Positions 21,480 to 43,482 of a stretch of 50,467 nt of DNA are shown piece after piece. Under the pieces are notes generated by a model. The model was not told the DNA's origin and did not search any database. It saw only the letters and a list, made by a program, of their open reading frames with translations. The translations under genes were made by a program, and so were the position numbers. Each line of letters opens with the position of its first letter. Positions within the stretch are counted from its first letter, which is position 1. Source of the stretch: an uncultured candidatus Brocadiaceae bacterium (lineage in GTDB: Bacteria; Planctomycetota; Brocadiia; SM23-32); contig CAZSET010000002.1 in assembly GCA_964605915.1 (NCBI GenBank), positions 1 through 50,467 of the forward strand, written 5' to 3'.

Positions 21480-21857
21480 ATGAATCTGACGAGCGCAGAA
21501 TGGCACGTGATGAACGCACTCTGGCAAGACTGGCCGGCCACGGCCCGGGAGATCGAGGCGAGGCTTTCTGACGAGGTCGATTGGGCCTACACCACACTCC
21601 GATCGGTCCTTGCCCGATTGGAGGAGAAGGGGGCTGTGAAGGAGTACAAGAGGAGCAACGTCAGTTTCTACGAGCCCATCCTGACCAGGCGGAAGGCTCG
21701 CATGGCAACGCTCCAGTCGGTGGTGAGCGAGGCTTTCGAGGGCGCTTTCGGACCGCTGGTGCACTTCCTTGTCGAAGAGGACGCGCTATCGGAGGAAGAA
21801 AGACGGAAGTTGATGGACGCACTGGGGCACGAAAAAGAGGGGGCCGACGATGACTGA
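21480..21857 (+). CDS. blaI: BlaI/MecI/CopY-family winged-helix transcriptional repressor
   Basis: LTSAEWHVMNALWQDWPATAREIEARLSDEVDWAYTTLRSVLARLEEKGAVKEYKRSNVSFYEPIL is the canonical Penicillinase_R-type fold sequence. The gene overlaps the downstream M56 gene by 8 nt. Confidence 0.92.
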   Translation: MNLTSAEWHVMNALWQDWPATAREIEARLSDEVDWAYTTLRSVLARLEEKGAVKEYKRSNVSFYEPILTRRKARMATLQSVVSEAFEGAFGPLVHFLVEEDALSEEERRKLMDALGHEKEGADDD

Positions 21858-24800
21858 GACATTGAACAGAATGGGGGAGGGGTGGTGGTCCTGGGTGGGC
21901 GCGATGGCCTGGCAGGTGGCCCTGCTCGCGCTGGTGGTGTGGCTCATCGACCTGGTGCTCCGGCGGCGCGGCTGGCCGCAGGTCCGCTATGCCTTGTGGG
22001 CGCTGGTTCTGGTGAAGCTGTTCATTCCGCCGACCTTTGCCCTCCCCAGCAGCGTCGTTAGCCGCGTGCTCCCGGGCGGCGAGCAGGCAGTTGCCGTGGC
22101 TGCGCCGGTGCGCGTGGAGCTTCCCGAGCCGGCGGAGCCGGCGGCCTTCCAGCCCATGGACCGCGCGGTGTCGGCGGTTCCTCAGGCCGAACCACTTGTT
22201 GCATCCCTCGTGCCCGCGGAGCCCCCTGCACCTGCAAGCAGACCATCCCTCTCCCTGAAAGCGTCGGCAATGCTCGGAAGCGGTACCGTAAGTCTCTTGC
22301 TTCTTGCCTGGCTCATCTGTCGGGCGCTCAGGCTGCGCAGGCTGATCCTGGCTGATTCGACGAAGATCACACCTGACTGGATCAACGGCGTGGTGGCGTG
22401 CTGTGCTCGCCGGCTCGGCCTCCGGGCGGTTCCGCCCGTCGTTGTCACCGAAGGGGTGAAGAGCGCGGCGGTCTTCGGCATCTTTCGGCCGGTCCTGCTG
22501 TTGCCTGTGCAGGCACTTGAGGATGCCTCTGCTGAGCGGACCTGTCCGCCGAAGCCAGAAGGGCGAAGGCGCATGGAACATATCATGCTCCACGAGCTTG
22601 CCCACGTGAAGCGCGGCGACCTGGTGATGAACACGGCGCAGGCCCTGGTGCAGGTCGCCTTCTGGTTCCACCCGGCTGTCTGGCTGGCGGGCATGCACCT
22701 TCGCCACCTGCGGGAGCTATGCTGCGACGCCAGCGTGTCCAGGCTCCTTCGCGAACGCACCTCCGAGTACCGGGAGACCCTGGTGGACGCTGCCCGCCGG
22801 ATGATCTTCGGCACGGAGAGGCCGGGCCTGGGCCTGCTGGGGCTCTTTGAGAACGCGAGCCGCCTGCGCCAGCGCCTGCATCATCTGGAGAAGCCGTCCT
22901 GGAAGCACCGACGGCTGAAAGTCATCGCCTCCCTGGCGGCGGCCGCCCTGATGGTCGCCCTGATCGTGCCTATGGCGCGGATGGCGCGCGCGGAGTCCTC
23001 TCTCCTGGAAAGCCTGCAGAGCGGCGCAGGCGAGGCAAGGGGACGGGCGGCGTGGCGTCTGCTTGAATCGTGCCAACAGGGCCGAGTCAGTGCGAGGGAT
23101 GCCGAGCGGATTGCCCAGGTCCTGCTGCCCCGGCTCGGCAGCGCCGCCGACAGGCTCACGTCTCGGACCGAGGCAGGGCCGAGCATCTATGGTTCGGAGA
23201 TCGCCCTCGCGTGGGGCCTGATAACGAACGACCTGGTGGCACAGTCCACGGCGATTGAGCTTGCGCACAATCTCGGGGCGGCCCGGTGTCAGTACGTGCC
23301 CGGGACGGGGGCACACATCGAGCTCCGTGGGAGACTGATGCGAGCGCCGGTTGGCGTGGTGATGCACCGGGTTCTCCGTGTCAGGGGCATCGACGGACAG
23401 GCCGTGGACGAGAGGGGCCTTGAGCTCTTCATCCTTCTCCATCGCCCATCACCCGTCACCTGGTCGCACCGGGAGCCGCTGGCGTTGACTCCGGCTCCCG
23501 CCCGATCCCTGGCCGTTGAAGTGGATACTGCCTTCTATCAGTTGCCACCGGAATTGATGGACGCTCTGCCGGCCAGCGCGAGATCGTTCTCCCCGGAGAA
23601 GATCGCTCTGGTGAGAGAAGCCCTCGGGGGCACCCAGGCACGGAAGCTTGTGGCGTACACCGACCATGCCCTGCTTACTGCGGAATCGGGATGGCAGAGC
23701 GCCCTCGCGCTGGAACCCGACGAGGCAAGCCCGCCGGCCGAGAGGCCGAGGAAGTATGCCGGCACGCTGCCCAACGGCGTGACCGTGGAGCTGGTCGGCG
23801 TCTCCTACCATCCGTCCCAAGGCGAACAGTGGTGGCGGCCGGACGGCACAACACTGGCAGAAGCGCCGTACGACAAGATGGACGGAAGCGTATCGGGTGG
23901 GCCCGGCGATCCTGTGAAGGCCTACGAATTCGCCCTCCGGACTGGAAATACAACGAACGGCATCGCCAGCGTCAGATGCAGATTCGAACCGAATGCGGGT
24001 TCTTCGGCAAGCGACGGCTCCCCTGGGAAAGGTGAGGGCGAACTGACCAACGTCCGGGCAATTGCTGCGACGTTGCCAGAGGGAGCCTCGAGGTGCACAA
24101 TGCGCGTGGGGGTGGCGGGCACCGCATGGCAGACTCTGGCAAGTGCAGACGGGAAAGGCTCTGCCAGCATGGGCGGAAACCTCGGCTCGGCTGCCTTCTC
24201 GGACGCATACGAGGTTGACGGAGAGGTCCGGATCGTCGTCACGGCGGATCAGTATGGGGCCGACTACCGCGTCCTTGCGACCACCCGGTCAGGCCAGACA
24301 AGATCTGCCGCCGGCACGAGCTTCTCCAGGGTGGGTGGCGCTGTGCAGATAGCGGCCGCTTTCCCCGGGTTAAGGCGGGAGGACGTTCAGGCATTCTCCC
24401 TCCAGACGCGCCTCTTCCAGCGCGTTGAGTTCCGGAACGTCTCGCTGGAGCCGGGGCATAGGACGGACGTGCAGGTCGTCGAACCTGAAACAGAGATCAT
24501 CCCCATCGGGACATCGCGTGTGCAGCCAAAGATCCTGGAGACCGTCAAGAAGCCGCAAGAGTTGACCTTCGGCCCTGTGATCGAGCGCACGGTCAGGGGC
24601 TCTCGTCAACGCACGGGATGTTACATTGATTTTGATACGGGGGGATTGCTGAGCCCGCCTTCCCAGGATACCCCGGGGGATGCCGTGGCTTTCTCGGCCT
24701 GGATTCAAGAGGACGGCATTGACGCCGTCGGTATAGCTTCCGAGAGCGAAAGACGCTTGGGGGGCTTCCACCTCGTAGCGCTTCCCGTTGCGAACGAACG

Positions 24801-27411
24801 TTGGAACACATCGCCATTAGAGGTCGCACGCACGGTCAGTGGGGCGTCCCCGGCTCCCGTAACGCACATGCGGGCAAGCCAGGACCTGCCGGCCACGTTT
24901 TTCATCAAAACGCGCGAAGGCGGTATCGGCATCGTACAGATACAGGACAACGGCCACCGACGTGCCGAAGAGCTAAGCGTTCGTTTCCAGATGTTGTCTG
25001 CCCGGGCTGCGGAGGGAGCAGCAGAAGCTGTGAGCGCCGACCCTTCAATTCGGCTGGTGGCTGTGGCGAATCTCAAGACAGGGAAAACGGTAGATGAACA
25101 CGGGAACCGAATACTCGACATGCCAGAGGGACCGGCAGTGCCTGATCCGGAACGGCTGGAGGCGCCTCTGGTGATCTGGGTAGACGTAACTGGTGGGGAC
25201 CGCAAATCATTGGTGGACTGGTCCTTGGCCGATCGCGAATCGGGACGTTATCTCGGCGGTGGCGGATCACAGAGGCACCACACCTACGAAACCGAAGACG
25301 GTACCAGAGTGTATCGAGCGGCTTTGCAGATGAGGCTGCCCTTGGACGTGGCAGCCGCGCTGGAGCTTCGCGCGAGAGTCGCTGCCGGGAACTGGTATCA
25401 AGTGGGTGACGCGATGGATGTCCAAGAACTTGAGAAGCATCTATCAAGGCCAGACACGCCTGTCTATACCCTCAGCATTGACGGCATTGCTGTTACCAAC
25501 TTGCGGGAAGCAGGTGACGGGGCGCAAATAACCTTAGCAGTGCCAAATTCGATCTGGCGTCAAAGGGTATTCTGGGCTCGAGCTACGCGCATAGACGGCG
25601 AGGCCGTCGAACCCCTTGCGTGGAATCCAGGCACTGAGACAGTGAGCGTGGTTTCTTTCACATTCTCCCGGCAAAAACTTTCCCAGCTGGACTCAATCAC
25701 CGTTCTACAGCGGCCAGCTCACGACATGGCCATCGACCTGCCCACCCCTTCGGTGAGTGCGACCTCAACTGAGGTCGAGCAAGAAACCGAGCCGGGGAAA
25801 CTGACCTTCGGCCCGGTGATCGAGCGGGTGGTTGGCGATGAGCCCAAGGTGCCGGACTGTACCATCGATTTAGACAGCGGAGTGCTCTACACGTTTCCAG
25901 TTGACCTGAAATTCGACGATGAGTCGGTGTTGGCGTGGTGTCGGAAGAACGGGGTTGATGCGATTGGTGAAGTGGGCGGAACACGAGGAGGTCTGGGGCC
26001 TGTGGATGCGGCTGTGATCTCTGCTACTACCGAGATGTGGGCCGCTTCATCCGCGGAGATACGGAAGCAAATCGCATCAGAGCCGGCGGCACCGTTCGAC
26101 ACCAGCTACATGATGCGGACTGCCAAGGATGAAGTACCTGCGACTTGGCTCTTTAGAACCCGCGAAGGCGGCATGGGTATCCTGCAGATCGTCGGCTTCA
26201 CCGAGGACCCGAAGGGAGTCAAGATCCGCTACAAAATGGTGCGCGAGGCAGCAGGGGACGACGGTGTCGGCCAGTCGCCAACGTCGCCGTGCCAGCCTGC
26301 GGAGCGGCTGGTCCAGGCACTGCGTGCCGAGGACCAGGGCGCGGTGGACGCCATCCTGGAGTCCCATCGGAGCTTTGACTATGACGGACTGAGCTTGCGC
26401 TACGACGATTTCCGGGACGGCCAGACCGTGCATCCCACTTTGAGGTACGTGCAAGATGAGAGGATATCCTACGACTTGATGGCGGCAATGGCACAGGTGA
26501 CGGTCGGACGGGCAGGCGAATGGCCTACGTTCACGCTCAAAGACTGCAGGGCCGTCTGCGACGCAGGAGACGAAGGGCTTCGAAGGCAGCTGGCCGCCGC
26601 CGAAGCCCAGTGCAAGGTCGACCCGTCGCGGCTGGGTCAAGCCGGCAGGGAGGCACGCTTCGCACTGAAAGGATTCGAGTTGCGCTGGGGGGACTGGACG
26701 CTTACGGCCCGGGCTGTGGCGGGTGCCGGAACGGAGGCCTTTACTATCTCCGGCCCTGCGGCGACGCTGGGCAATTCCGATCCCCCGCTCCGCCTTGTCG
26801 TCACGGCCCAGAGGGCCACCTATTCCCCGGAAACGGGGACCGTGAGCTTTCGCGGCAGCGTCGAGGCCAGGCGCGGCAATCTTCAGCTTACCGCGGACGA
26901 ACTCACGGTAAAGCGACCCTCGCACGCTATGGTGATCGATGGCCGCTTCGTGCTGCGGGGACGGAGCATTCGCGCCGGCAGCAGTCCGCTGGATGTCGAG
27001 CTGACGGGCCAAGGGGGCGAAGCTGACTTGACCCAGGAAAGACTGGCTGTCTCGGGAGGGCTCACGGTCGTGATCCGCAATCTTTCCGGCGACATCCTCG
27101 CCCAACTGTCCGGGTTGGATGCCTCCGAAATCAGGGGCGCGGAATTGGTGCTGAAGTGCACGGGCCCTGCGGCCTACGACCGGAAGGCAGGGGTGGCAGA
27201 GCTTGCGCAGTTCACGCTGAGCATCGGTGGCAAGCGAATTCTCAAAGGCGATACACTCGAGGTGAGCCGCGCATCCGAGAGCGACGGACGGCTCCGGATC
27301 AAGGCGACCGGTTCGGTGGACGTCCGCCGCCAGGGAGTCACGCTGCAGCGCGACAGCATCGAGATTCTGTGCGGCCCCGACGACGCGGAGGCGGACATCA
27401 CGCGTTTCTGA
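21850..27411 (+). CDS. BlaR1/M56-family zinc-metallopeptidase sensor-transducer with a ~1480-aa extracytoplasmic extension
   Basis: The N-terminal TM helices, the HEXXH motif HELAHVKRGD (22591-22605 encodes HELAH) and FWFHPAVWL are typical of peptidase M56. A further TM segment (VIASLAAAALMVALIVPMA) follows. The large C-terminal region contains two homologous ~147-aa modules and a C-terminal beta-rich repeat region. Confidence 0.9.
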   Translation: MTETLNRMGEGWWSWVGAMAWQVALLALVVWLIDLVLRRRGWPQVRYALWALVLVKLFIPPTFALPSSVVSRVLPGGEQAVAVAAPVRVELPEPAEPAAFQPMDRAVSAVPQAEPLVASLVPAEPPAPASRPSLSLKASAMLGSGTVSLLLLAWLICRALRLRRLILADSTKITPDWINGVVACCARRLGLRAVPPVVVTEGVKSAAVFGIFRPVLLLPVQALEDASAERTCPPKPEGRRRMEHIMLHELAHVKRGDLVMNTAQALVQVAFWFHPAVWLAGMHLRHLRELCCDASVSRLLRERTSEYRETLVDAARRMIFGTERPGLGLLGLFENASRLRQRLHHLEKPSWKHRRLKVIASLAAAALMVALIVPMARMARAESSLLESLQSGAGEARGRAAWRLLESCQQGRVSARDAERIAQVLLPRLGSAADRLTSRTEAGPSIYGSEIALAWGLITNDLVAQSTAIELAHNLGAARCQYVPGTGAHIELRGRLMRAPVGVVMHRVLRVRGIDGQAVDERGLELFILLHRPSPVTWSHREPLALTPAPARSLAVEVDTAFYQLPPELMDALPASARSFSPEKIALVREALGGTQARKLVAYTDHALLTAESGWQSALALEPDEASPPAERPRKYAGTLPNGVTVELVGVSYHPSQGEQWWRPDGTTLAEAPYDKMDGSVSGGPGDPVKAYEFALRTGNTTNGIASVRCRFEPNAGSSASDGSPGKGEGELTNVRAIAATLPEGASRCTMRVGVAGTAWQTLASADGKGSASMGGNLGSAAFSDAYEVDGEVRIVVTADQYGADYRVLATTRSGQTRSAAGTSFSRVGGAVQIAAAFPGLRREDVQAFSLQTRLFQRVEFRNVSLEPGHRTDVQVVEPETEIIPIGTSRVQPKILETVKKPQELTFGPVIERTVRGSRQRTGCYIDFDTGGLLSPPSQDTPGDAVAFSAWIQEDGIDAVGIASESERRLGGFHLVALPVANERWNTSPLEVARTVSGASPAPVTHMRASQDLPATFFIKTREGGIGIVQIQDNGHRRAEELSVRFQMLSARAAEGAAEAVSADPSIRLVAVANLKTGKTVDEHGNRILDMPEGPAVPDPERLEAPLVIWVDVTGGDRKSLVDWSLADRESGRYLGGGGSQRHHTYETEDGTRVYRAALQMRLPLDVAAALELRARVAAGNWYQVGDAMDVQELEKHLSRPDTPVYTLSIDGIAVTNLREAGDGAQITLAVPNSIWRQRVFWARATRIDGEAVEPLAWNPGTETVSVVSFTFSRQKLSQLDSITVLQRPAHDMAIDLPTPSVSATSTEVEQETEPGKLTFGPVIERVVGDEPKVPDCTIDLDSGVLYTFPVDLKFDDESVLAWCRKNGVDAIGEVGGTRGGLGPVDAAVISATTEMWAASSAEIRKQIASEPAAPFDTSYMMRTAKDEVPATWLFRTREGGMGILQIVGFTEDPKGVKIRYKMVREAAGDDGVGQSPTSPCQPAERLVQALRAEDQGAVDAILESHRSFDYDGLSLRYDDFRDGQTVHPTLRYVQDERISYDLMAAMAQVTVGRAGEWPTFTLKDCRAVCDAGDEGLRRQLAAAEAQCKVDPSRLGQAGREARFALKGFELRWGDWTLTARAVAGAGTEAFTISGPAATLGNSDPPLRLVVTAQRATYSPETGTVSFRGSVEARRGNLQLTADELTVKRPSHAMVIDGRFVLRGRSIRAGSSPLDVELTGQGGEADLTQERLAVSGGLTVVIRNLSGDILAQLSGLDASEIRGAELVLKCTGPAAYDRKAGVAELAQFTLSIGGKRILKGDTLEVSRASESDGRLRIKATGSVDVRRQGVTLQRDSIEILCGPDDAEADITRF
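24559..24996 (+). repeat. Intragenic protein module copy 1 (ELTFGPVIER...PATFFIKTREGGIGIVQI...)
   Basis: Shares LTFGPVIER-V, C-ID-D-G-L, W---G-DA-G and PAT--F-TREGG-GI-QI with copy 2. The first ~26 nt are nearly identical at DNA level (TGACCTTCGGCCC-GTGATCGAGCG). Confidence 0.6.
25798..26241 (+). repeat. Intragenic protein module copy 2 (KLTFGPVIER...PATWLFRTREGGMGILQI...)
   Basis: See copy 1. By eye the two copies are about 30 percent identical over ~147 aa, with the same order of conserved blocks. Confidence 0.6.
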
Positions 27412-35302: not shown

Positions 35303-35536
35303 ATGCAGGAACTCGTCGAGAGGGCGCAGCGGGGCGATTTGAAGGCCTTCGGCCAGTTGGTCGAACGCTTCCAGGACGCCGTCCACGAGCATGCGCACGT
35401 CGGGTTTTCCACCTTCGGTGCGGCGCCTGCGCCCGGCAGATGTCTTGACGCTGACCGGGCCGGCGCTACAATAGCCGGCGTTAGTTCGATGGTGCTGCAA
35501 CTCGCACGCAACGCAATGAAGGGCTTTGGGCGTTGA
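35303..35536 (+). pseudogene. ECF sigma factor N-terminal stub (only ~30 codons of homology)
   Basis: MQELVERAQRGDLKAFGQLVERFQDAV is a typical ECF region-2 leader. Homology then stops, with no region 2.2-2.4 or region 4. Confidence 0.5.
35445..35472 (+). promoter_or_regulatory. Candidate promoter for the RM-like module (TTGACG-N16-TACAAT)
   Basis: TTGACG at 35445-35450, 16-nt spacer, TACAAT at 35467-35472, about 170 nt upstream of ATG 35643 and inside the sigma-factor stub. Confidence 0.45.
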
Positions 35537-35564
35537 TCCCTCGTGGTGTGCCTGTTGGCGATCG

Positions 35565-35593
35565 GGGCCGGACAGGGTTGAGCCTGTCGGCCC
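35565..35593 (+). other. Stable hairpin in the 5' leader of the RM-like module
   Basis: GGGCCGGACAGG / CCTGTCGGCCC gives 11 bp with one bulged G and a 6-nt loop. There is no U-tract, so it is not a classical terminator. Confidence 0.4.
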
Positions 35594-35642
35594 GACAACA
35601 CGAATCCAGTCGGCATTCCAGTTCCAGGCGATGGGGGGACAG

Positions 35643-37979
35643 ATGTCGAAGTATGATGAACTAGACGCGCGCACCGAACTGGAGCAGGCGATCGCGGCCG
35701 ACTTGAGGCGAGCTCTGCAAAAGCGGGGGTTCAGGGTCAGGCACAATGGGACTCCTGAAAGCAGCGCACCGGCCGGAACGCCTGACATCCTGGTCACCGA
35801 CGACGACCTAGCCTTCACATTCGAGGCAACGAGGGCCAGGGGCGCGGCACAGGACCGAGAGCTGAACTCCATTCGCGACCACCTCAATCAGATCAAGCAA
35901 GACAACCCCGCGAAGCGCTGCTACTGCGTCTTCGTTTCGCCAGAGACGTCCCGTCGGATGATCGATGGAATTCGCGACCATAACCATCAGCGGGCCAGCG
36001 AAGGCCTCAATGACATGCGAATACTTCCACTGTGCTTCGACACTGTTGAACTGTGGTCTGATCGCCTCCTAAGAAGTGACGCTGATCTTTACCCCGTGGA
36101 CAGCTTCAGGGCAGTCTTCGACCAACACGTGGAGTTCATAGACGACTTACGCGTTCGTAAGGTGCTGCTGGAGCAGGTCTTTCCCAGTGACGAAGGCTTG
36201 TTCGAGGCCGTTCGGAGGCAGGAAACAGAACTCGACCAGAAGACCCTTGAGAGGCTGGTCCGGGACTTGGCGCGCATGGAAGACTACATGCGACAGCACG
36301 GTGTTGCCGTGGGCCGAGCCGCGATAGATAACCTAATCTACCTCGTCTTCCTCAAGCTGTATGAAGAGAAGCGAGAGCGAAACGGAGACGCGAATCGTTT
36401 GCGCTCCGTTGGGGCCTTTGAGCACTACAGGCGCAACAGTGTGAGCGCCCCAGTGCGCCGCGAGAAGCGGGCCATCCACGACCTTTTCAACGACGTAAAG
36501 CAAGAAGGCGAATTCCTGTCGTCGGGGATGTTTACCCGGGGAGACAGTCTCGCTGAAACACTGCGGGACGATTTCGTGATAGACCGTCTAATCCCGATGT
36601 TCAGCGATTACACCTTCCTGGGCACGCACATAGATGCTCTGGGCGCCGTATACGAGGTCCTGGCATTACGCGCAGAGAAAGACGTCAAAGTCGGGCAGTT
36701 TTTTACCCCTGAGAACGTGGTCCGCTTCATGGTCAGCGTTGCCGACTTGGACTACCGGGACCTAGTTCTAGATCCGGCCTGCGGCACAGGGCGTTTCCTG
36801 ATCTGGGCCATGCTCGACATGCTGGGCAAGTTACAGAGGTCAGATGAGCACGATAAGGAGCACCAGTCGGAGCAGATACGTCTACACAGGCTTTTCGGGG
36901 CCGATATCGATGACCGGATCGCCAAGATAGCGAAGATGAACATGTGGATTCATGGGGACGGTAAGGCAAACGTCTTCGGCGGGCCGGCATACAACGGTCT
37001 GACGCTCCATAGGCACGGCTTTGACAGCCATGAATCTTTCGACGACGCCTTTGACGTGGTCTTGACCAATCCCCCGCTCGGTGAGCTCAACTATAGGGCA
37101 GTTGCGTTCGTTGATCGCGCGCGCCGCGACAGCGCTGAAGCAACGCTAGCACGCATGCCCGTGCTGCCAAGAAAGAGCCGGACAGCAGACAGGCTGGATA
37201 CCGTCCGGAAAAGGCTATCGGACCATGAGCACGGGCTTGCGGAGCTTGAGGCGGCTATAACGATCGTCAAGAGGGAGGAACGTGTCAGAGAGTGGCTTGC
37301 TCTAGAGGCGCATCCCCGGACACAGGACGACCGCCGGCGGCGCAGGGAATTAGGCAAGACTGAGGAAGTCCGGGAGTACCGACGACTTCGTTCCAGGGCG
37401 TCGCGCAAGCAAGTCACGATTGACAAGAACGAGCACGAAGCGAGGGAGCTTGAGGTAGACGTTCGTCGCAACGAGTGCGATTGGGCTATCACCGGCAATA
37501 CCATGAAAGGGGGAGCATTGTTTCTTGCTGCGATTTGGCACTACCTCAAGGATATCTCTCGCCCCAACATGCCGCCTGAGTGGAAGGGCGGGAGAATGCT
37601 CATCATTCTCGACGAAGGTATTCTCAACACGGACAACTACGCGGAGGTCAGGGACTTCTTGCGGTCTCATTTCTACGTGAAGGCTGTCTTCTCACTGACC
37701 AGGGACACCTTTGTCCCGGTGTCCAAGACCTCAACGAAAACGTCCATTCTGTATGCAATCAAGAAGACGGGCCCCGATGTCGCACAGAGGGAACCCGTCT
37801 TCTTCGGGCACGTTGAGCGTGTCGGTCTGGACACACGGGGCAAGTCATGTCCGAACGATTCTGCGGCAATGCTGGAGAGGTATCTCGATTTCAAGGCGAA
37901 GGTTCTCTCTTCATACTCAGGTCTTGAGTTCCGGGAAGACTGGTTTGACGCACAGGGCTTCGAAGCGGGCGGCTTATGA
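35643..37979 (+). CDS. Fusion protein: N-terminal PD-(D/E)xK-like domain + HsdM_N-like helical domain + gamma-class N6-adenine DNA methyltransferase (RM subunit candidate)
   Basis: FFTPENVVRFMVSV and DPACGTGRFL (motifs X and I), FGADIDDRIAKIAKMNMWIHG, and motif IV as TNPPLG (37068-37082). Late motifs GGALFLAAIWHYL, RMLIILDEGILNT and VKAVFSLTRDTF. The N-terminal ~170 aa contain GTPDILV-x11-FEATR. ATG 35631 is an alternative start. Confidence 0.88.
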   Translation: MSKYDELDARTELEQAIAADLRRALQKRGFRVRHNGTPESSAPAGTPDILVTDDDLAFTFEATRARGAAQDRELNSIRDHLNQIKQDNPAKRCYCVFVSPETSRRMIDGIRDHNHQRASEGLNDMRILPLCFDTVELWSDRLLRSDADLYPVDSFRAVFDQHVEFIDDLRVRKVLLEQVFPSDEGLFEAVRRQETELDQKTLERLVRDLARMEDYMRQHGVAVGRAAIDNLIYLVFLKLYEEKRERNGDANRLRSVGAFEHYRRNSVSAPVRREKRAIHDLFNDVKQEGEFLSSGMFTRGDSLAETLRDDFVIDRLIPMFSDYTFLGTHIDALGAVYEVLALRAEKDVKVGQFFTPENVVRFMVSVADLDYRDLVLDPACGTGRFLIWAMLDMLGKLQRSDEHDKEHQSEQIRLHRLFGADIDDRIAKIAKMNMWIHGDGKANVFGGPAYNGLTLHRHGFDSHESFDDAFDVVLTNPPLGELNYRAVAFVDRARRDSAEATLARMPVLPRKSRTADRLDTVRKRLSDHEHGLAELEAAITIVKREERVREWLALEAHPRTQDDRRRRRELGKTEEVREYRRLRSRASRKQVTIDKNEHEARELEVDVRRNECDWAITGNTMKGGALFLAAIWHYLKDISRPNMPPEWKGGRMLIILDEGILNTDNYAEVRDFLRSHFYVKAVFSLTRDTFVPVSKTSTKTSILYAIKKTGPDVAQREPVFFGHVERVGLDTRGKSCPNDSAAMLERYLDFKAKVLSSYSGLEFREDWFDAQGFEAGGL

Positions 37980-39397
37980 TCACTGAAACATCGAACTGCT
38001 ACTGCGTTACGCCGGCCGAAATGCAGGGAGACCGATTGGACTTCGTTTCCCACCATCCAGATCTGGAGGAGACACGCCTGTTCAGGAGATCCCATGAGGT
38101 GACACTTGGGTCCATTATCCGGACACCCGAGTATGGTCTATCCCAGAGCGGACAGGCAGAAGGTAGCACCGGCTTCCTCAACGTGCAGCACATAAGGACC
38201 AATGGACGGATCTCGTTCGATCCCCCGGTTTTCCTCCGAGACGATCCCGGCCGCCGGGAGTTAAGAACTGGCGACATACTGATTGCCCGCACCGGTCATA
38301 CTCTCGGCAAAGCCGCGTTGATTCCAGACGAGTTTGCAGGGTACTCGTGGGGGTCTTTCTGCATCCGACTGTCCCTGCTGTGCGACGCACCGTTTCGCGG
38401 GGGGTTCGTTGCGCGCTTCCTGAACTCTCGGCTGGGGCAGCTACAGATCCTCATGCTCAAGACAGGAGCAGGCAAGTTCAACATCAACTCTGAACAGATA
38501 ATGGACATACGCCTTCCCGAGCTTACGCTCGGTAGGCAAGACGAGGTCCTCAGGTCGGTGCGGCCGCTCGAGGCCCAGGCTGCCGAGCTTCAAGAGGAGA
38601 GCAAGCTTGCCCGGAGGGGACTCGAGGCTATGGTGCCCGAAGAGCTGGCCGTCGATGCGGTCAGCGCGACCAAGCGTGATTACTTCTTTCGAACCGGGAA
38701 AGAGGGTCGGTCACTCTGGTTTCATAAGCGCGCTAGTGAGCTTACAGGACGCCTTCACTACCTTTTCCACCACCCTGGCCTGGCAATCCTAGATAGTTTC
38801 TTCGACCGGTACGAGACCGTGGCCCTCAGCGATATCTGCCGCGAGCCCATCAGTAGAGGTGTCCAGCCTGAATATGAGGAAGGGGGTGAAGTCACTGTGC
38901 TGAAAACGGTGGACCTTCAGGACGGCTACATAGACTTCGAAAATGCGCTGAAAGTATCAGAAGACTTCTTCCTCTCCAGCACTGAGGCGCATGTCCGCAG
39001 AGGCGACATCTTGGTGGCGTCGACTGGATACGTATCAATGGGGAAAGTGGATGTCTACGACAGTGACGAGGCGGCCATGATATCTGGTGAACTCCTCGGG
39101 CTCCGCGTCAGGGATGAGTATGATCCCTCCTTCGTCGCTTGCTTCTTGCGCTCGCATCTTGGCAAGGTGCAGTTTGACAAGTGGTTCTCTGGCTCGTCCG
39201 GACAGATACATTTGTATGATAGTGACTTGAGTCAGTTCCTCGTACCCGCAAGTACAGCGGCTGGGGTGCCAGTAGGCGAGCAGATCCGCATTGCCAGCAT
39301 TGTGACCGACCGCATGAGCCGTGCGCGGGACCTGGAGCGCCAAGCAGAGGACAAGTGGCGGGAAGCGCAGCTCAAGTTTGAGGGAATGGTAGCGTAG
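37976..39397 (+). CDS. Restriction-modification specificity (HsdS-like) subunit with two target-recognition domains
   Basis: Two homologous halves, each with GDILIARTG / GDILVASTG, FL.S.LG..Q and a coiled conserved region (LEAQAAELQEESKLARRGLEAMV; RDLERQAEDKWREAQLKFEGMV). The ATG overlaps the upstream stop (ATGA at 37976-37979). Confidence 0.9.
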   Translation: MITETSNCYCVTPAEMQGDRLDFVSHHPDLEETRLFRRSHEVTLGSIIRTPEYGLSQSGQAEGSTGFLNVQHIRTNGRISFDPPVFLRDDPGRRELRTGDILIARTGHTLGKAALIPDEFAGYSWGSFCIRLSLLCDAPFRGGFVARFLNSRLGQLQILMLKTGAGKFNINSEQIMDIRLPELTLGRQDEVLRSVRPLEAQAAELQEESKLARRGLEAMVPEELAVDAVSATKRDYFFRTGKEGRSLWFHKRASELTGRLHYLFHHPGLAILDSFFDRYETVALSDICREPISRGVQPEYEEGGEVTVLKTVDLQDGYIDFENALKVSEDFFLSSTEAHVRRGDILVASTGYVSMGKVDVYDSDEAAMISGELLGLRVRDEYDPSFVACFLRSHLGKVQFDKWFSGSSGQIHLYDSDLSQFLVPASTAAGVPVGEQIRIASIVTDRMSRARDLERQAEDKWREAQLKFEGMVA

Positions 39398-39427: not shown

Positions 39428-39784
39428 GTGGTCGGCTTCCCTAGATTCGCTCAAGCGGATGTGCTTGGGTTCACGAACGGGACGTTCCTTGTGGGCTGTG
39501 CACAGGAACTCCCCTTTCTGGATCGGAAGTCCGCCGCTGTCTCTATGCTTGGGCTACTGGAGAGCATGGATTGGGACGGGGTGCATGGGGTGATGGAGGA
39601 GGTCCGGCGCGTGCTCAGACCTGCCGGCCGCATGGCAGTGCTGGATGGGGATTGGGAGGGTGGCCTGCACCAGTTGCTCATCGCTCCGCATCGACGCCTC
39701 GTGCCTCCTTGCCTCCACTCGTATAGACAGGATTCAAGGGGAGGGGGTTCCGGGGATTCCGAGCTTTCTTCCTGGACGGCATGA
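39428..39784 (+). pseudogene. Class I SAM-dependent methyltransferase C-terminal fragment (lacks motif I)
   Basis: RFAQADVLGF...CAQELPFLDRKSAAVSMLGLLESMDWDGVHGVMEEVRRVLRPAGRMAVLD corresponds to post-motif-II to motif-V of Methyltransf_11-type enzymes. No GxGxG segment lies upstream. Confidence 0.55.
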
Positions 39785-39999: not shown

Positions 40000-40038
40000 C
40001 GTAGCGCCAGGAGGCGCACAGACAGGCCGAATGTACAG

Positions 40039-40079
40039 GCGGCCACGTTGCGGAATGCCCGCGCGTGGCCGCTTTTTTT
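40039..40079 (+). terminator. Strong Rho-independent terminator
   Basis: 9-bp GC-rich stem GCGGCCACG (40039-40047) / CGTGGCCGC (40064-40072), followed directly by T7 (40073-40079). The RBS GGGAGA of the next gene starts 5 nt later. Confidence 0.8.
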
Positions 40080-40096
40080 CGTTGGGAGATCAACGC

Positions 40097-40921
40097 ATGA
40101 CAGAACCCATTACGACGAACGACGAAGCACGCCGCTGGCAGCAGCTCTTTGGGAACATGCTTTTCTGGGAGTTCGACGGCATCCCGTCCAGCGATAACAT
40201 TCGCTCTGCAGTGGGTTTCATGGAACGGGCACTCAAGCTCACGCAGGGAGACCGAGTGCTCGACCTGGCCTGCGGCCTGGGTTACCACACCATCGCACTG
40301 GCCCGGCGCGGTTACGAGGTGACTGGACTCGACTGGTCAGAACAGTACCTGGAAGTGGGCCGCCGGGATGCACGGGAGGCCGGCGTGGCGATCGACTTCG
40401 TTCAGGGCGACATGGCTCGCATGACATTCGAGGACGAGTTCGACGCCGTCGTCCTGTGGCGCAACACGTTCGGCATGATGTGCGACGACGCGAACGCGGC
40501 GGTCCTTCGCGGAATGCGCCGGGCCCTCCGGCAAGGGGGCCGCGCGCTGATCGACACCCAGAACTACACGGGCCTGCCCGACAAGCTGGACCGCGGGTGG
40601 TCCTTCAAGGAAGGGAATGACAACCGGCTCTTCCTCACGGAAGGCACCAAAGACGTGCGCCGCGGCCGATTCGGCTTCGATGTGCTGGCCATCGACCTCA
40701 CAACGGGGGAACGCCACAGAATGCCGTATTCCTGGCGCCTCTACCTGCTGCCCGAACTGGAGAAGCTGGTCACAGACGCGGGGATGCGACTGCTCGGCGT
40801 GTACGGCGACGATCCGGCCCACGTTGACTGGAAGGGCTGGCGACGAGGCGAGCCTGACCCGTATAGCCCCGAAGGCTTCACGGACAAGGCCGCGAAGCGG
40901 ATACTGCTCTGCGAAGCCTGA
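40097..40921 (+). CDS. Class I SAM-dependent methyltransferase
   Basis: Motif I VLDLACGLGYHTIALARRGYEVTGLD, then FVQGDMARMTFEDEFDAVVLWRNTFGMM and LRQGGRALID. RBS GGGAGA lies 7 nt before ATG 40097. Confidence 0.88.
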   Translation: MTEPITTNDEARRWQQLFGNMLFWEFDGIPSSDNIRSAVGFMERALKLTQGDRVLDLACGLGYHTIALARRGYEVTGLDWSEQYLEVGRRDAREAGVAIDFVQGDMARMTFEDEFDAVVLWRNTFGMMCDDANAAVLRGMRRALRQGGRALIDTQNYTGLPDKLDRGWSFKEGNDNRLFLTEGTKDVRRGRFGFDVLAIDLTTGERHRMPYSWRLYLLPELEKLVTDAGMRLLGVYGDDPAHVDWKGWRRGEPDPYSPEGFTDKAAKRILLCEA

Positions 40922-40961
40922 AGACCATGCCCGCGCTCTTGCACTGGAGGTGGGATGCCCG

Positions 40962-41666
40962 ATGGGATCCATCATCGAGATGCTGGACGAGGAGTATGCC
41001 AGCTACCTCGGCTGCCGGCCTGAGGACCTTCGCATGCACGGAGTCACTGCGCGGGCTGGAGGACGCGCCCCTCTGACAGCCGCGGTGACTGCGGCCGGGG
41101 GAATCGTCAGCTCGGCTCTCCTGGACCACAGGCAGCTGAGGGCGGCCGTCCAGGCCTGTGCCGGAAGCGATCTGCTGGACCAGGTGCATCTTCGGCGGCT
41201 GATCGGCCTCCTGCCTGAGCGGGACAAGCCCTGGAGCGTGGGCGAGCAGAACGTGCTCTACTTCTGCACCCGAGAGACGTTTCGGCCTTGTGCCGGGCCG
41301 GCCGAACCGGTGAGAGCGGACGACGCTGTCTGGGAGGAGGCCCGGGAGGCGGAGCGGGAGTTCGCTGAAGACGGCAAGAAGTGGCACGTCGAGGCGGCGT
41401 TTGCCGTGTACGTCGGCTTGGTTCGGGCGTCAACGGCTAGGCTGATCGACCAGGGACGGCATCCCTTCCGAGCCGTCGGGATCAGAACAGTGCCCGAGTT
41501 CCGGCGACGGGGCTACGCCAAGGCGTGCGTGTCGGCCGTGACGGCCTGGGCCCTGGAGCGCGGCCGCGTGCCGCTGTACAACACACAGACGCTCAACGTT
41601 GCCTCCATCGCCGTGGCACAAGCCGTTGGGTACAGCGAACACATCCGGTACGCCCAGGTGACATAG
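40962..41666 (+). CDS. GNAT-family (FR47-like) N-acetyltransferase
   Basis: C-terminal acetyl-CoA-binding core VGIRTVPEFRRRGYAKACVSAVTAWALERGRVPLYNTQTLNVASIAVAQAVGY. GGAGGTGGGA lies upstream of ATG 40962. The track ORF start at 40617 overlaps the previous gene and is not credible. Confidence 0.8.
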   Translation: MGSIIEMLDEEYASYLGCRPEDLRMHGVTARAGGRAPLTAAVTAAGGIVSSALLDHRQLRAAVQACAGSDLLDQVHLRRLIGLLPERDKPWSVGEQNVLYFCTRETFRPCAGPAEPVRADDAVWEEAREAEREFAEDGKKWHVEAAFAVYVGLVRASTARLIDQGRHPFRAVGIRTVPEFRRRGYAKACVSAVTAWALERGRVPLYNTQTLNVASIAVAQAVGYSEHIRYAQVT

Positions 41667-41842
41667 CGGCCATCTGGATCGAACGAACTGGGGACAAACG
41701 TGACTGGAGAGACGGCTACAGATACAGCTGAAGGCTTCGAGCAGGCGGTGAGGGCGGCTGACTGCGTAGGTCCTTGTGGGCGACACGTCGTTCCGGCTTT
41801 CGCACGCGATAGAGATCAGCCAAAAGGAAAGCGGATGGGAGC

Positions 41843-42663
41843 ATGCTCCGAGCGGTTAGAACTTCAATAGGCAACATGGACGCGATTCTCCAGCTTCTGG
41901 AGCGGCGTCGGCTCCACAACGCGTGGCTGATCTGGTTCGCATGGGACGCGCTCCATGATCCGGACCATTCTGGGGAGGTCGTCATCTGCCGCAGCGGCTC
42001 TCAGCTCCTCGGGGCCGCATATCTGGGACAGAGGCCGTTGCGCGACGAGAAGGCGCCGGCCGACTTCGACGTCCACATGGATGCCGTCAGCGCTGACGCG
42101 GCCAGGGCGCTGACGGAGGCGTTGTGCCCTGGGGCCATCGGCCACTTCCAGCTCTTCACGCCAGAGACTCGGCAGTTCTTCGATGGGCTCGAGGACGCGA
42201 AGCGCCACGAGGACGATCTCTACTACACCGTGTCGGCGGAGCACTTCCGGCCCGTCGGCCGCCCTGATGTGGTCGAGATGACAGAGGCCGAAGCCGGCCT
42301 TTTCGAGGGGTGCGAACGCCAGCCGGACTGGGCGCATGCCCATGAGGAGAGCAGGCTGTTCGCCATCGTCCTGGATGAGAGTGTTGCTGCCTCCGTCTGC
42401 TGCACTCCCATCACGCCCAATGGGGCGACCGCTCCGCGCGTGGTCAGCATCGGAGCGCTGCACACGGAGACGCCTCACCGTCGGCAGGGCCTGGGCCGGC
42501 GGATGGCGCCTACGCCACCCAGTTGATTCTGAGCGAAGGCAACCTGCCGATCTACTGGACAGGGCCGGATAACGCAGCTTCCCAGCGCCTGTGCACAGGC
42601 CTGGGGTACTGGCAATACGCCCAGAAAGTGAACTACGTCTGGCGACGCACGGCCGGGCGATGA
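41843..42663 (+). pseudogene. GNAT-family N-acetyltransferase paralogue interrupted by a frameshift near 42500
   Basis: Frame 1 ends ...LHTETPHRRQGLGRRMAPTPPS* (TGA 42524-42526). The +1 frame continues with the expected GNAT C-terminus (G)AYATQLILSEGNLPIYWTGPDNAASQRLCTGLGYWQYAQKVNYVWRR to TGA 42661-42663. Confidence 0.7.
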
Positions 42664-42678
42664 AGGGAGTGCCTAGAG

Positions 42679-43482
42679 GTGAGCGTGAACCGAACGAACG
42701 TGTACGACGTCGAGCCCCACGTGGCCGAGATCTACGATCAGCAGGAGGACTACACCGACGACGTGGAACTGATCCGCAGGCTCATCGGCCACCGGCAGAG
42801 CCTGCGCATCCTGGAGCCGTTCTGCGGAACAGGCCGTATACTCATCCCGCTCGCGCGGGACGGGCATGAGCTTGTGGGGCTGGATCAGGCGAAAGGGATG
42901 CTCGACCGCGCACGGACCAAGCTCCAGGAACTGCCTGAGCAGGCGCAGTCAAGAGTTACCTTGCTGCGGTGCGACGTCACAGACGGTGAGTGGCCGGGCG
43001 AGTTCGACCTGGTGCTCTTGGGCGGGAACTGCTTCTACGAGCTCGCATCGCCGGAGGAGCAGGAAGGCTGCATTGCCTCGGCTGCGGCGGCGTTGCGCAC
43101 CGGGGGATACGTCTACGTGGACAGCGACCACATGGAGGGAGAGCTTGACGAGTCGTGGCGAAGGCCCGGCGCGGGGCGGAGCTTTCCCACCGGGACCTGC
43201 GCCGACGGCACCCGGGTGGAGAGCAGCACGGAGACCATCTGGGTTGATGCTCGGCGCAGACTCGACAGGTTCCGTCGCCGGACCAAGGTGGTCTCCCCGG
43301 ACGGTCGCGTCACAGCGGCGGAATACATTCAGCAGAAGCATCCGTGCAGCACGGGCGAAGTGCGCGGATGGCTGGAGCGGCACGGCTTCGTCGTCCAGCA
43401 CCTGTTCGGTGATCGAGCCGGAAACCCGTACTCCGAGACGTCCGGAAGGGCCATCTTATGGGCATGCAAGAAGGGGCACTGA
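42679..43482 (+). CDS. Class I SAM-dependent methyltransferase (paralogue of 40097-40921)
   Basis: Motif I ILEPFCGTGRILIPLARDGHELVGLD, then LLRCDVTDGEWPGEFDLVLLGGNCFYEL and LRTGGYVYVD. GTG start at 42679 with GAAGGGAG upstream. Confidence 0.85.
   Translation: MSVNRTNVYDVEPHVAEIYDQQEDYTDDVELIRRLIGHRQSLRILEPFCGTGRILIPLARDGHELVGLDQAKGMLDRARTKLQELPEQAQSRVTLLRCDVTDGEWPGEFDLVLLGGNCFYELASPEEQEGCIASAAAALRTGGYVYVDSDHMEGELDESWRRPGAGRSFPTGTCADGTRVESSTETIWVDARRRLDRFRRRTKVVSPDGRVTAAEYIQQKHPCSTGEVRGWLERHGFVVQHLFGDRAGNPYSETSGRAILWACKKGH

Follow-up and report, generated by a model that had tools for sequence, protein, structure and literature searches.

The stretch of DNA analysed here, referred to below as the window, comprises 50,467 nucleotides from an uncultured candidatus Brocadiaceae bacterium (assembly GCA_964605915.1, contig CAZSET010000002.1). 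At positions 35643-39397 of its forward strand it carries two genes of a candidate restriction-modification enzyme, which we call RM (a putative restriction nuclease fused to an N6-adenine methyltransferase, MTase) and S (an HsdS-like specificity subunit). The RM open reading frame (ORF; 35526-37979, + strand) has 817 codons from a TTG and 778 from the ATG at 35643. The public gene call is 782 aa long and starts at ATG 35631, four codons before 35643. We take ATG 35643 as the likelier start because the homologues all start MSKYD... and GGGGGGA lies upstream of this codon. This reading frame and the sequence motifs quoted in a preliminary description of the DNA were all verified at their places, namely GTPDILV (aa 45-51, 35775-35795), FEATR (aa 60-64, 35820-35834), IDNLIYLVFLKLYEEK (aa 228-243), the motif I sequence DPACGTGRFL (aa 377-386, 36771-36800) and the motif IV sequence NPPLG (aa 476-480, 37068-37082). 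The spacing GTPDILV-x11-FEATR given there needs correction to x8, with 12 residues between D48 and E61. The ATGA overlap of the two genes at 37976-37979 can be read directly from the sequence, as already described, and S is translationally coupled to RM through this overlap.

An alignment of 60 full-length homologues (45-65% identity) served as the input for an AlphaFold2 model of the complete RM protein (pLDDT 90.7, pTM 0.83). In this model, residues 1-176 form an alpha/beta domain, residues 177-345 are all helical and a Rossmann-type MTase core begins at residue 346. The order of domains in RM is a PD-(D/E)xK nuclease of the AlwI/BstNBI type, a connector resembling HsdM_N and a gamma-class MTase dependent on S-adenosylmethionine (SAM).

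The N-terminal domain had been regarded as uncharacterised and its nuclease motif as divergent, with the lysine position altered. Neither view was upheld. Pfam PF09491 (RE_AlwI) matches RM aa 23-130 with 34.5 bits against a gathering score of 23.1 (E = 1.6e-8), and the match covers profile positions 323-433 of 441, the catalytic end of the family. Modelled alone with AlphaFold2, the domain reached a pLDDT of 96, and a Foldseek search with this model, a fold check proposed in the preliminary description, returned nuclease folds on top. Its nine best matches in the PDB were the catalytic domain of Nt.BspD6I and the small catalytic subunit of R.BspD6I (2p14), followed by the resolvases Hjc and RecU. 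The superposition on Nt.BspD6I gave a TMq of up to 0.75, a root-mean-square deviation of 3.3 Å and an E value of 3e-7, and a profile of the domain searched against PDB sequences also found Nt.BspD6I (E = 4e-11, residues 430-567).

Residues D48, E61, T63, E73 and H80 of RM align with D456, E469, T471, E482 and H489 of Nt.BspD6I, so that the domain shares with this enzyme both the fold and the active-site residues D456/E469/E482. E14 would be the equivalent of E418. Both D456A and E418A variants of Nt.BspD6I are reported as catalytically deficient (PMC6261011), the former being the protein of PDB entry 5lhc. In a set of 41 sequences that extends to relatives at 30-38% identity, E14, H34, D48, E61, E73, H80 and R105 are invariant, and position 63, which corresponds to the lysine of (D/E)xK, is T or A. 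As the active Nt.BspD6I has E-x-T at the same columns (E469-V-T471), the 'missing lysine' is the normal state for the AlwI-type family. Mean column conservation was 0.60 in the nuclease domain, 0.59 in the connector, 0.40 in the helical hairpin described below and highest, at 0.71, in the C-terminal half of the MTase. RM does not have the full Type IIS layout of AlwI, in which the protein's own N-terminal DNA-recognition domains precede a C-terminal cleavage domain. It carries the catalytic part only, at the N-terminus, and the Type IIS layout appeared only at the tail of the search of representative sequences with the N-terminal domain. No RM-fusion model in PADLOC-DB spans an AlwI-type head; the only models that match, weakly, are those of Type IIS and nicking restriction endonucleases.

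Judged by these sequence features, the N-terminal domain is likely to be an active nuclease. The preliminary description had also considered an orphan pair of methyltransferase and specificity subunits carrying a domain of unknown function. Such a modification-only enzyme, an orphan or an epigenetic regulator whose nuclease-fold domain is inactive or only binds DNA, would suit the T or A in place of the catalytic lysine, and a restriction phenotype has been reported for no member. However, the E-x-T arrangement is that of an active enzyme, all acidic residues are invariant together with H34, H80 and R105 in the 41 bacterial and archaeal sequences, and the nuclease domain is conserved as the connector is. 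Moreover, nuclease-less relatives pair with HsdR and nuclease-fused ones never do. We therefore consider modification alone very unlikely.

The remainder of RM agrees with the gamma-class N6-adenine MTase proposed before. Pfam N6_Mtase covers aa 330-484 (E = 1e-25), the EcoKI M, hsdM and MAD2 models align from around aa 182-260 onwards, beginning in the connector, and the C-terminal half of the core aligns with residues 564-631 of BsaXI and with Type I M subunits. BsaXI was the best PDB match of RM both by sequence (phmmer) and by fold (Foldseek), with Type I M subunits next. To our knowledge, a structure exists for no Type IIB enzyme other than BsaXI.

None of the aligned homologues departs from motif I, QFFTP or the N-P-P of motif IV. 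The canonical gamma-class motif IV is NPP[F/Y/W], and the corresponding stretch reads SNPPF in BsaXI and ANPPW in HsdR-linked relatives from the genome scan described below, whereas it is TNPPLG in all nuclease-fused loci (40/40, L001-L040) and in all aligned homologues (60/60). Methylation by an enzyme with NPPL may be normal, slow or altered. A more radical possibility is a restriction enzyme whose MTase is crippled by NPPL and acts as a SAM-binding, base-flipping sensor of methylation, with protection coming from another methylase or from slow, maintenance-only methylation. Leucine at the aromatic position of motif IV is found in inactive paralogues such as METTL14 (EPPL), and the contrast between invariant NPPL in the fused loci and NPPW or NPPF in the relatives points the same way. 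BcgI, furthermore, is an extreme maintenance methylase (PMC4081073). On the other hand, the remaining MTase motifs are kept without exception, no second DNA methylase recurs beside the module in 31 loci, and restriction that lacks cognate protection would kill the cell; we regard a crippled MTase as distinctly improbable.

Between motif IV and strand beta-5, the model shows two long antiparallel helices (aa 513-543 and 574-608) joined by a short helical tip. This hairpin insertion is present in all 60 homologues with a length of 107-172 aa; 41% of its residues are charged (K/R/D/E) and its sequence is poorly conserved. It had no match in the PADLOC scan. Three oddities described here were absent from the preliminary description: NPPL in place of NPP[F/Y/W], this large helical insertion after motif IV, and relatives in which RM is fused to half an S subunit.

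The S gene encodes, as described before, an HsdS-like protein of 473 aa with two target recognition domains (TRDs), which are accompanied by two conserved helices. Aligned with each other, aa 14-218 and aa 254-473 of this protein show 27% identity (E = 6e-12), the PADLOC models mad5 and Specificity_I each match S in two stretches, and NCBIfam MAD5 and PRK09737 match as well. Pfam Methylase_S (PF01420) was not reached on the window S at E 0.1; many homologues do match it. Many S homologues also match the window protein over one half only and at higher identity, which points to TRD reassortment, of which this is the usual signature. The first TRD (aa 38-193, within 37976-38560) found its best PDB sequence match in short chains of ~200 aa named 'Esub1' (8vsq, 8vsr; E = 4e-5); Type I S subunits ranked lower. 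The coordinates of all features are collected in Table 1.

Table 1 Features of the RM-S module and of the edges of its island in the window (CR, conserved region).
Feature	Coordinates	Strand	Evidence
RM gene: fused restriction nuclease and N6-adenine methyltransferase, 778 aa	35643..37979	+	ORF, homologue N-termini, Pfam RE_AlwI and N6_Mtase, AlphaFold2 model
N-terminal PD-(D/E)xK nuclease domain, AlwI/BstNBI/BspD6I type, aa 1-176	35643..36170	+	Pfam, Foldseek, profile
Putative catalytic residues E14, D48, E61, E73, H80	D48 35784-35786; E61 35823-35825; E73 35859-35861	+	
All-helical connector, HsdM_N-like, aa 177-345, includes IDNLIYLVFLKLYEEK	36171..36677	+	Model helices aa 184-343
MTase core, N-terminal half, aa 346-484: QFFTP, motif I, motif IV	36678..37094	+	Pfam N6_Mtase, invariant columns
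Charged helical hairpin, aa 485-646, between motif IV and strand beta-5	37095..37580	+	Model secondary structure
MTase core, C-terminal half, aa 647-778, with C-terminal helices, then stop codon	37581..37979	+	
S gene: HsdS-like specificity subunit, 473 aa	37976..39397	+	ORF, PADLOC, NCBIfam, internal repeat
S halves: TRD1-CR1, ~aa 1-235; TRD2-CR2, ~aa 236-473	37976-38680; 38681-39394	+	
Promoter-like site TTGACG-16-TACAAT, ~170 nt upstream of RM start	35445..35472	+	Consensus scan, weak
Island left edge: N-terminal remnant of extracytoplasmic function (ECF) sigma factor gene, ~30 codons	35303..35390	+	NCBIfam RpoE
Island right edge: C-terminal fragment of class I SAM-dependent small-molecule methyltransferase gene	39428..39784	+	Pfam Methyltransf_11/25, NCBIfam

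A word-indexed protein search found several hundred members of the family. The AlwI-headed subfamily is, on the sequence counts, narrow and rare: a phmmer search of 1.84 billion representative sequences with the N-terminal domain gave only 87 clusters, nearly all with the domain at residues 1-175 of proteins the size of RM or of RM fused to S parts (RMS). Scanning one genome per species yielded ~37 nuclease-fused loci, which are spread over bacteria (Gemmatimonadota, Acidobacteriota, Bacillota, Chloroflexota, Planctomycetia, Deinococcus, Sphingomonas and Methylobacterium) and archaea (Nanohaloarchaea, Thermoplasmata, Methanoperedens, Bathyarchaeota, Aenigmarchaeota and Nanoarchaeota). Among the cultured organisms that have a member are Neobacillus sp. 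OS1-33 (CP133262, ~227-231 kb), Priestia megaterium, Virgibacillus halodenitrificans, Bacillus toyonensis, Sphingomonas mucosissima DSM 17494, Deinococcus radiomollis and Methylobacterium hispanicum DSM 16372. In the closer relatives the S gene lies directly downstream of RM, overlapping or abutting it. The protein P0010 (locus L004, 1914-4991) and the group at 30-38% identity (L025-L037) are instead single chains of 955-1045 aa with one C-terminal TRD-CR half, which in P0010 shares 59% identity with the second half of the window S. By analogy with HaeIV, such fused chains would be expected to dimerise on symmetric bipartite sites. L004 resembles a conjugative element, in that a TraG-like coupling protein, UvrD, ParB and KwaA are encoded close by. 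A single-chain Type IIG enzyme (MmeI/BpuSI-like) does not describe the window module, where S is a separate gene; the fused RM-half-S form exists among its relatives.

The next-closest MTase relatives, at 26-29% identity (L043, 430-2304; L045, 9446-11914), bear a Pfam HSDR_N_2 head and lack the hairpin insertion; L045 additionally has a fused Methylase_S domain. Since MTase relatives of the same lineage carry this other head, the AlwI-type head looks swapped in. In the literature that could be searched, no relevant description was found of a fusion of an AlwI head to an MTase or of NPPL in DNA methylases. One 'AlwI family' match proved to be an ordinary Type IIS enzyme recognising GCATC.

No gene for HsdR or another SF2 helicase was found in the window, either by a Pfam scan of all ORFs of at least 700 aa or by tblastn with Type I HsdR, in agreement with the preliminary description. 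The same tblastn query detected HsdR beside 14 nuclease-less HsdM relatives, bacterial and archaeal, which served as a positive control. Beside the nuclease-fused members it found none, except at the Neobacillus locus, which has a separate complete hsdMSR operon, and the large ORFs adjoining the fused loci encode unrelated proteins. We reject a Type I system that has its hsdR nearby, since the 50 kb contain no helicase and the query finds HsdR where control loci have it. RM was also rejected as a Type I HsdM by TIGR00497 (47 bits against a cutoff of 242.75). All-against-all clustering of the neighbours in 31 loci left S as the sole recurrent functional partner, with transposases in 8 loci. A conserved third gene was accordingly discarded as a candidate, and the YgjP-like gene of Neobacillus does not recur. 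That locus (L001, Neobacillus sp. OS1-33, CP133262, 217-240 kb) is a region resembling a defence island, with a NucS_C-domain protein and the YgjP-like hydrolase directly after S, besides the Type I operon.

The pair could still be a fragment of something larger, either a Type I system with an unlinked hsdR, which may carry its own promoter, or a multi-gene defence like MADS, whose MAD2 and MAD5 are the best NCBIfam/PADLOC models for the two proteins. Membership of MADS itself was rejected: the scores are far under the equivalog cutoffs (167 against 720 for MAD2, 65 against 400 for MAD5), and MAD6, MAD7 and MAD8, which are mandatory in MADS (bioRxiv 10.1101/2023.03.30.534895), are absent from the window, where the neighbours are glycosidases and gene remnants. 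With only RM and S recurring over the 31 loci and RM having a nuclease of its own, a larger system is barely credible.

The genes flanking the module encode a GH9 glycosidase, a sigma factor remnant and an MTase fragment. The sigma remnant matches positions 8-35 of the NCBIfam RpoE model (E = 6e-4), and its similarity ends after ...ERFQDAV; the fragment at the right edge covers only profile positions 45-97 of Pfam Methyltransf_11/25. The GC content at third codon positions (GC3) is 0.67-0.69 in RM and S against 0.79-0.89 in the adjoining genes. This difference, together with the remnants on both sides, suggests that the module arrived horizontally, and gene remnants bounding a low-GC3 island on both sides suggest an insertion accompanied by a deletion. 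Around 35.3-39.8 kb of the window, no pair of terminal inverted repeats (TIRs), flanking direct repeat or transposase was found, and there are no tRNA genes in the window. Promoter and terminator scans gave results at chance level only, with two promoter-like consensus sites against 1.4 expected.

Elsewhere, a DDE transposase lies directly upstream of RM in 8 of the 31 loci, five of them with SWIM and DDE_Tnp_1 domains and three IS240/IS6-like (L008, L019, L014, L021, L036, L018, L022 and L024). In L008 (8236-13115), 19-nt inverted repeats and a 7-bp duplication, ATCATCC, surround the transposase and an RM-half-S gene. In L019 (7123-13645), 18-nt inverted repeats and a 9-bp duplication, CTACCAATC, surround the transposase, RM and S. 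Because TIRs and target-site duplications enclose the transposase with RM or with RM and S, the module appears to travel on transposons as cargo in no fewer than two lineages, a bacterial and an archaeal one. The inverted repeats of both loci start with (C)GGCTTTG; GGCTTTG also occurs at 35522 of the window, at a frequency expected by chance. Neither the full protein nor the N-terminal domain had a match among the PLSDB plasmids, and the family is absent from the INPHARED phages, where matches cover the MTase domain only. Only two IMG/VR contigs contain a family member, in both cases at a contig end.

Further observations concern other parts of the window. An ORF of 1853 aa (21850-27411) combines an N-terminal BlaR1-type M56 peptidase/sensor with a C-terminal LptD_N/LptA-like part, with ~1300 unannotated residues between them. 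Downstream of the island, 40031-43482 holds two SAM methyltransferases and two GNAT acetyltransferases of the small-molecule modifying kind. One of these methyltransferases (42679-43482) shows a weak likeness to daptide-type methyltransferases of ribosomally synthesised and post-translationally modified peptides (RiPPs), with 73 bits against a cutoff of 175.

Taken together, 35643-39397 probably encodes a restriction-modification enzyme of the Type IIB/IIC kind that is self-contained, has no motor and arrived by horizontal transfer. An N-terminal PD-(D/E)xK nuclease and a gamma N6-adenine MTase share one chain, the HsdS-like component has two TRDs, and at the level of gene content no HsdR or other motor and no separate MTase was found with the pair in the window, and none recurs in the 31 loci. 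The Type IIB (BcgI-like) architecture suggested in the preliminary description is supported by the domain order, the separate two-TRD S, BsaXI as the top structural match and a gene pair that recurs without HsdR. If the module works as BcgI and BsaXI do, a pair of RM chains would assemble with a single S into (RM)2S at a bipartite asymmetric site, and each MTase would flip and methylate one adenine per half-site, protecting the host DNA. The N-terminal heads would cleave unmethylated DNA outside the site, at a short and fixed distance from it. An AlwI-family head has one active site and depends on another head for a double-strand break. Two-sided double-strand cleavage would therefore require the heads of a second complex in trans, as in BcgI; otherwise the enzyme would only nick. 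The hairpin, beside the base-flipping motif, probably lies along the DNA or touches the nuclease head or a partner complex, which is speculative.

Several points weigh against this assignment. For every member, two-sided cleavage, the (RM)2S stoichiometry and SAM dependence are drawn by analogy. Sequence similarity to BsaXI is limited to the MTase domain at ~15% identity, and the BsaXI nuclease domain lies outside the top 50 fold matches of the N-terminal domain, so that homology with characterised Type IIB enzymes over the entire architecture does not follow. Every member has NPPL where motif IV of Type IIB/IIC enzymes is NPP[F/Y/W], and with the stacking aromatic missing methylation might be feeble or atypical. 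Because the window is one contig, a partner gene may lie unlinked to it. Finally, the solved structure in the AlwI family is that of a nickase, so the enzyme could nick instead of cutting both strands.

In another reading, the architecture is the same and the behaviour is not that of Type IIB. By structure, the head is closest to the nickase Nt.BspD6I and to its separate small catalytic subunit, which double-strand cutting requires (PMC6261011), and AlwI and MlyI require transient dimerisation to cut both strands (PMC3017599). BcgI, however, also has one nuclease site per RM chain and overcomes this limit by higher-order assembly on two sites (PMC4081073), and the sequence is equally compatible with nicking and with Type IIB cutting. 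We consider a departure from Type IIB behaviour unlikely.

Compared with characterised members, the family seems from its sequences to have three hallmarks of its own: the AlwI-type head, the invariant NPPL and the charged hairpin of 107-172 residues after motif IV. Somewhat more speculatively than the Type IIB/IIC assignment, and with reservations, one may consider a distinct, TRD-programmable class of restriction-modification enzymes in which the nickase-type head, the hairpin and NPPL act together and which has spread through bacteria and archaea as cargo of TIR transposons. Its regime of cleavage and methylation could be unlike that of BcgI and BsaXI. The site might, for instance, be flanked by paired nicks or by blunt or 5'-overhang cuts, or the enzyme might only sense or only maintain methylation. 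We hold this idea tentatively and think it rather doubtful as a whole.

If the Type IIB/IIC assignment is right, the family would be a Type IIB-like lineage of independent origin, in which an AlwI/BstNBI cleavage domain became attached to a Type I-like core of M and S. It would add a further case for restriction enzyme types arising by the shuffling of nuclease heads on one methylase-specificity chassis. Enzymes with swappable TRDs and a nickase-type head could give new programmable cutters or nickases, and the invariant NPPL offers a natural test of whether N6-adenine methyltransferases need the stacking aromatic. For restriction-enzyme specialists the family will be no major surprise, and automatic annotation already half-recognises it.

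Among known systems, MADS supplies the top curated models over the MTase and S regions (MAD2 and MAD5), but the MAD2 model spans neither the nuclease head nor the hairpin of RM, and MAD6-8 have no counterpart here. The M2S core of Type I enzymes (EcoKI, StySJI, T. tengcongensis) shares with the window module the HsdM_N-like helical domain, the gamma MTase, the two-TRD S and the translational coupling of hsdM and hsdS. It differs in that the window module has no HsdR, a nuclease fused to M, a large insertion after motif IV, and NPPL.

BsaXI consists of nuclease, multi-helical connector and MTase in one chain and forms (RM)2S with a two-TRD S (PMC11997821). Its structures (PDB 8w0p/8w2p) have in common with the window enzyme the N-terminal PD-(D/E)xK nuclease, the connector, the gamma N6-adenine MTase, the separate two-TRD S and the lack of a motor, and both enzymes have extra helical elaborations on the MTase core. 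In BsaXI these are a knob and a paddle after beta-7 and beta-8, whereas the window hairpin lies between motif IV and beta-5. The nuclease head of BsaXI is of another lineage than the AlwI-type head of the window, and BsaXI has NPPF where the window has NPPL. BcgI has the same two-gene layout of RM and S, with one nuclease and one MTase site per RM chain (PMC4081073), a likeness drawn from its description and not from sequence. With its 2RM:1S composition, it is the enzyme on which the predicted stoichiometry and the supposed need for extra heads in trans are modelled (PMC4081073), and its action on two sites, cleavage of eight bonds and maintenance methylation are carried over to the window family by analogy only. 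The relatives with one TRD-CR half fused to RM (P0010, L025-L037) correspond to HaeIV-type single-chain RMS enzymes (PMC4081073), while the window keeps S as a separate two-TRD protein.

The Type IIS and nicking enzymes of PF09491 (AlwI, MlyI, PleI, N.BstNBI and Nt.BspD6I) share with RM the catalytic fold and the active-site columns D...E-x-T...E...H. In those enzymes, the catalytic domain is C-terminal to their own recognition domains and a separate MTase provides protection. AlwI-type heads leave blunt ends or 5' overhangs of 1 nt; the known Type IIB enzymes, of which 28 are characterised, leave 3' overhangs. In the window RM, by contrast, the catalytic domain stands alone, N-terminal to the MTase, and specificity would come from the HsdS-like subunit.

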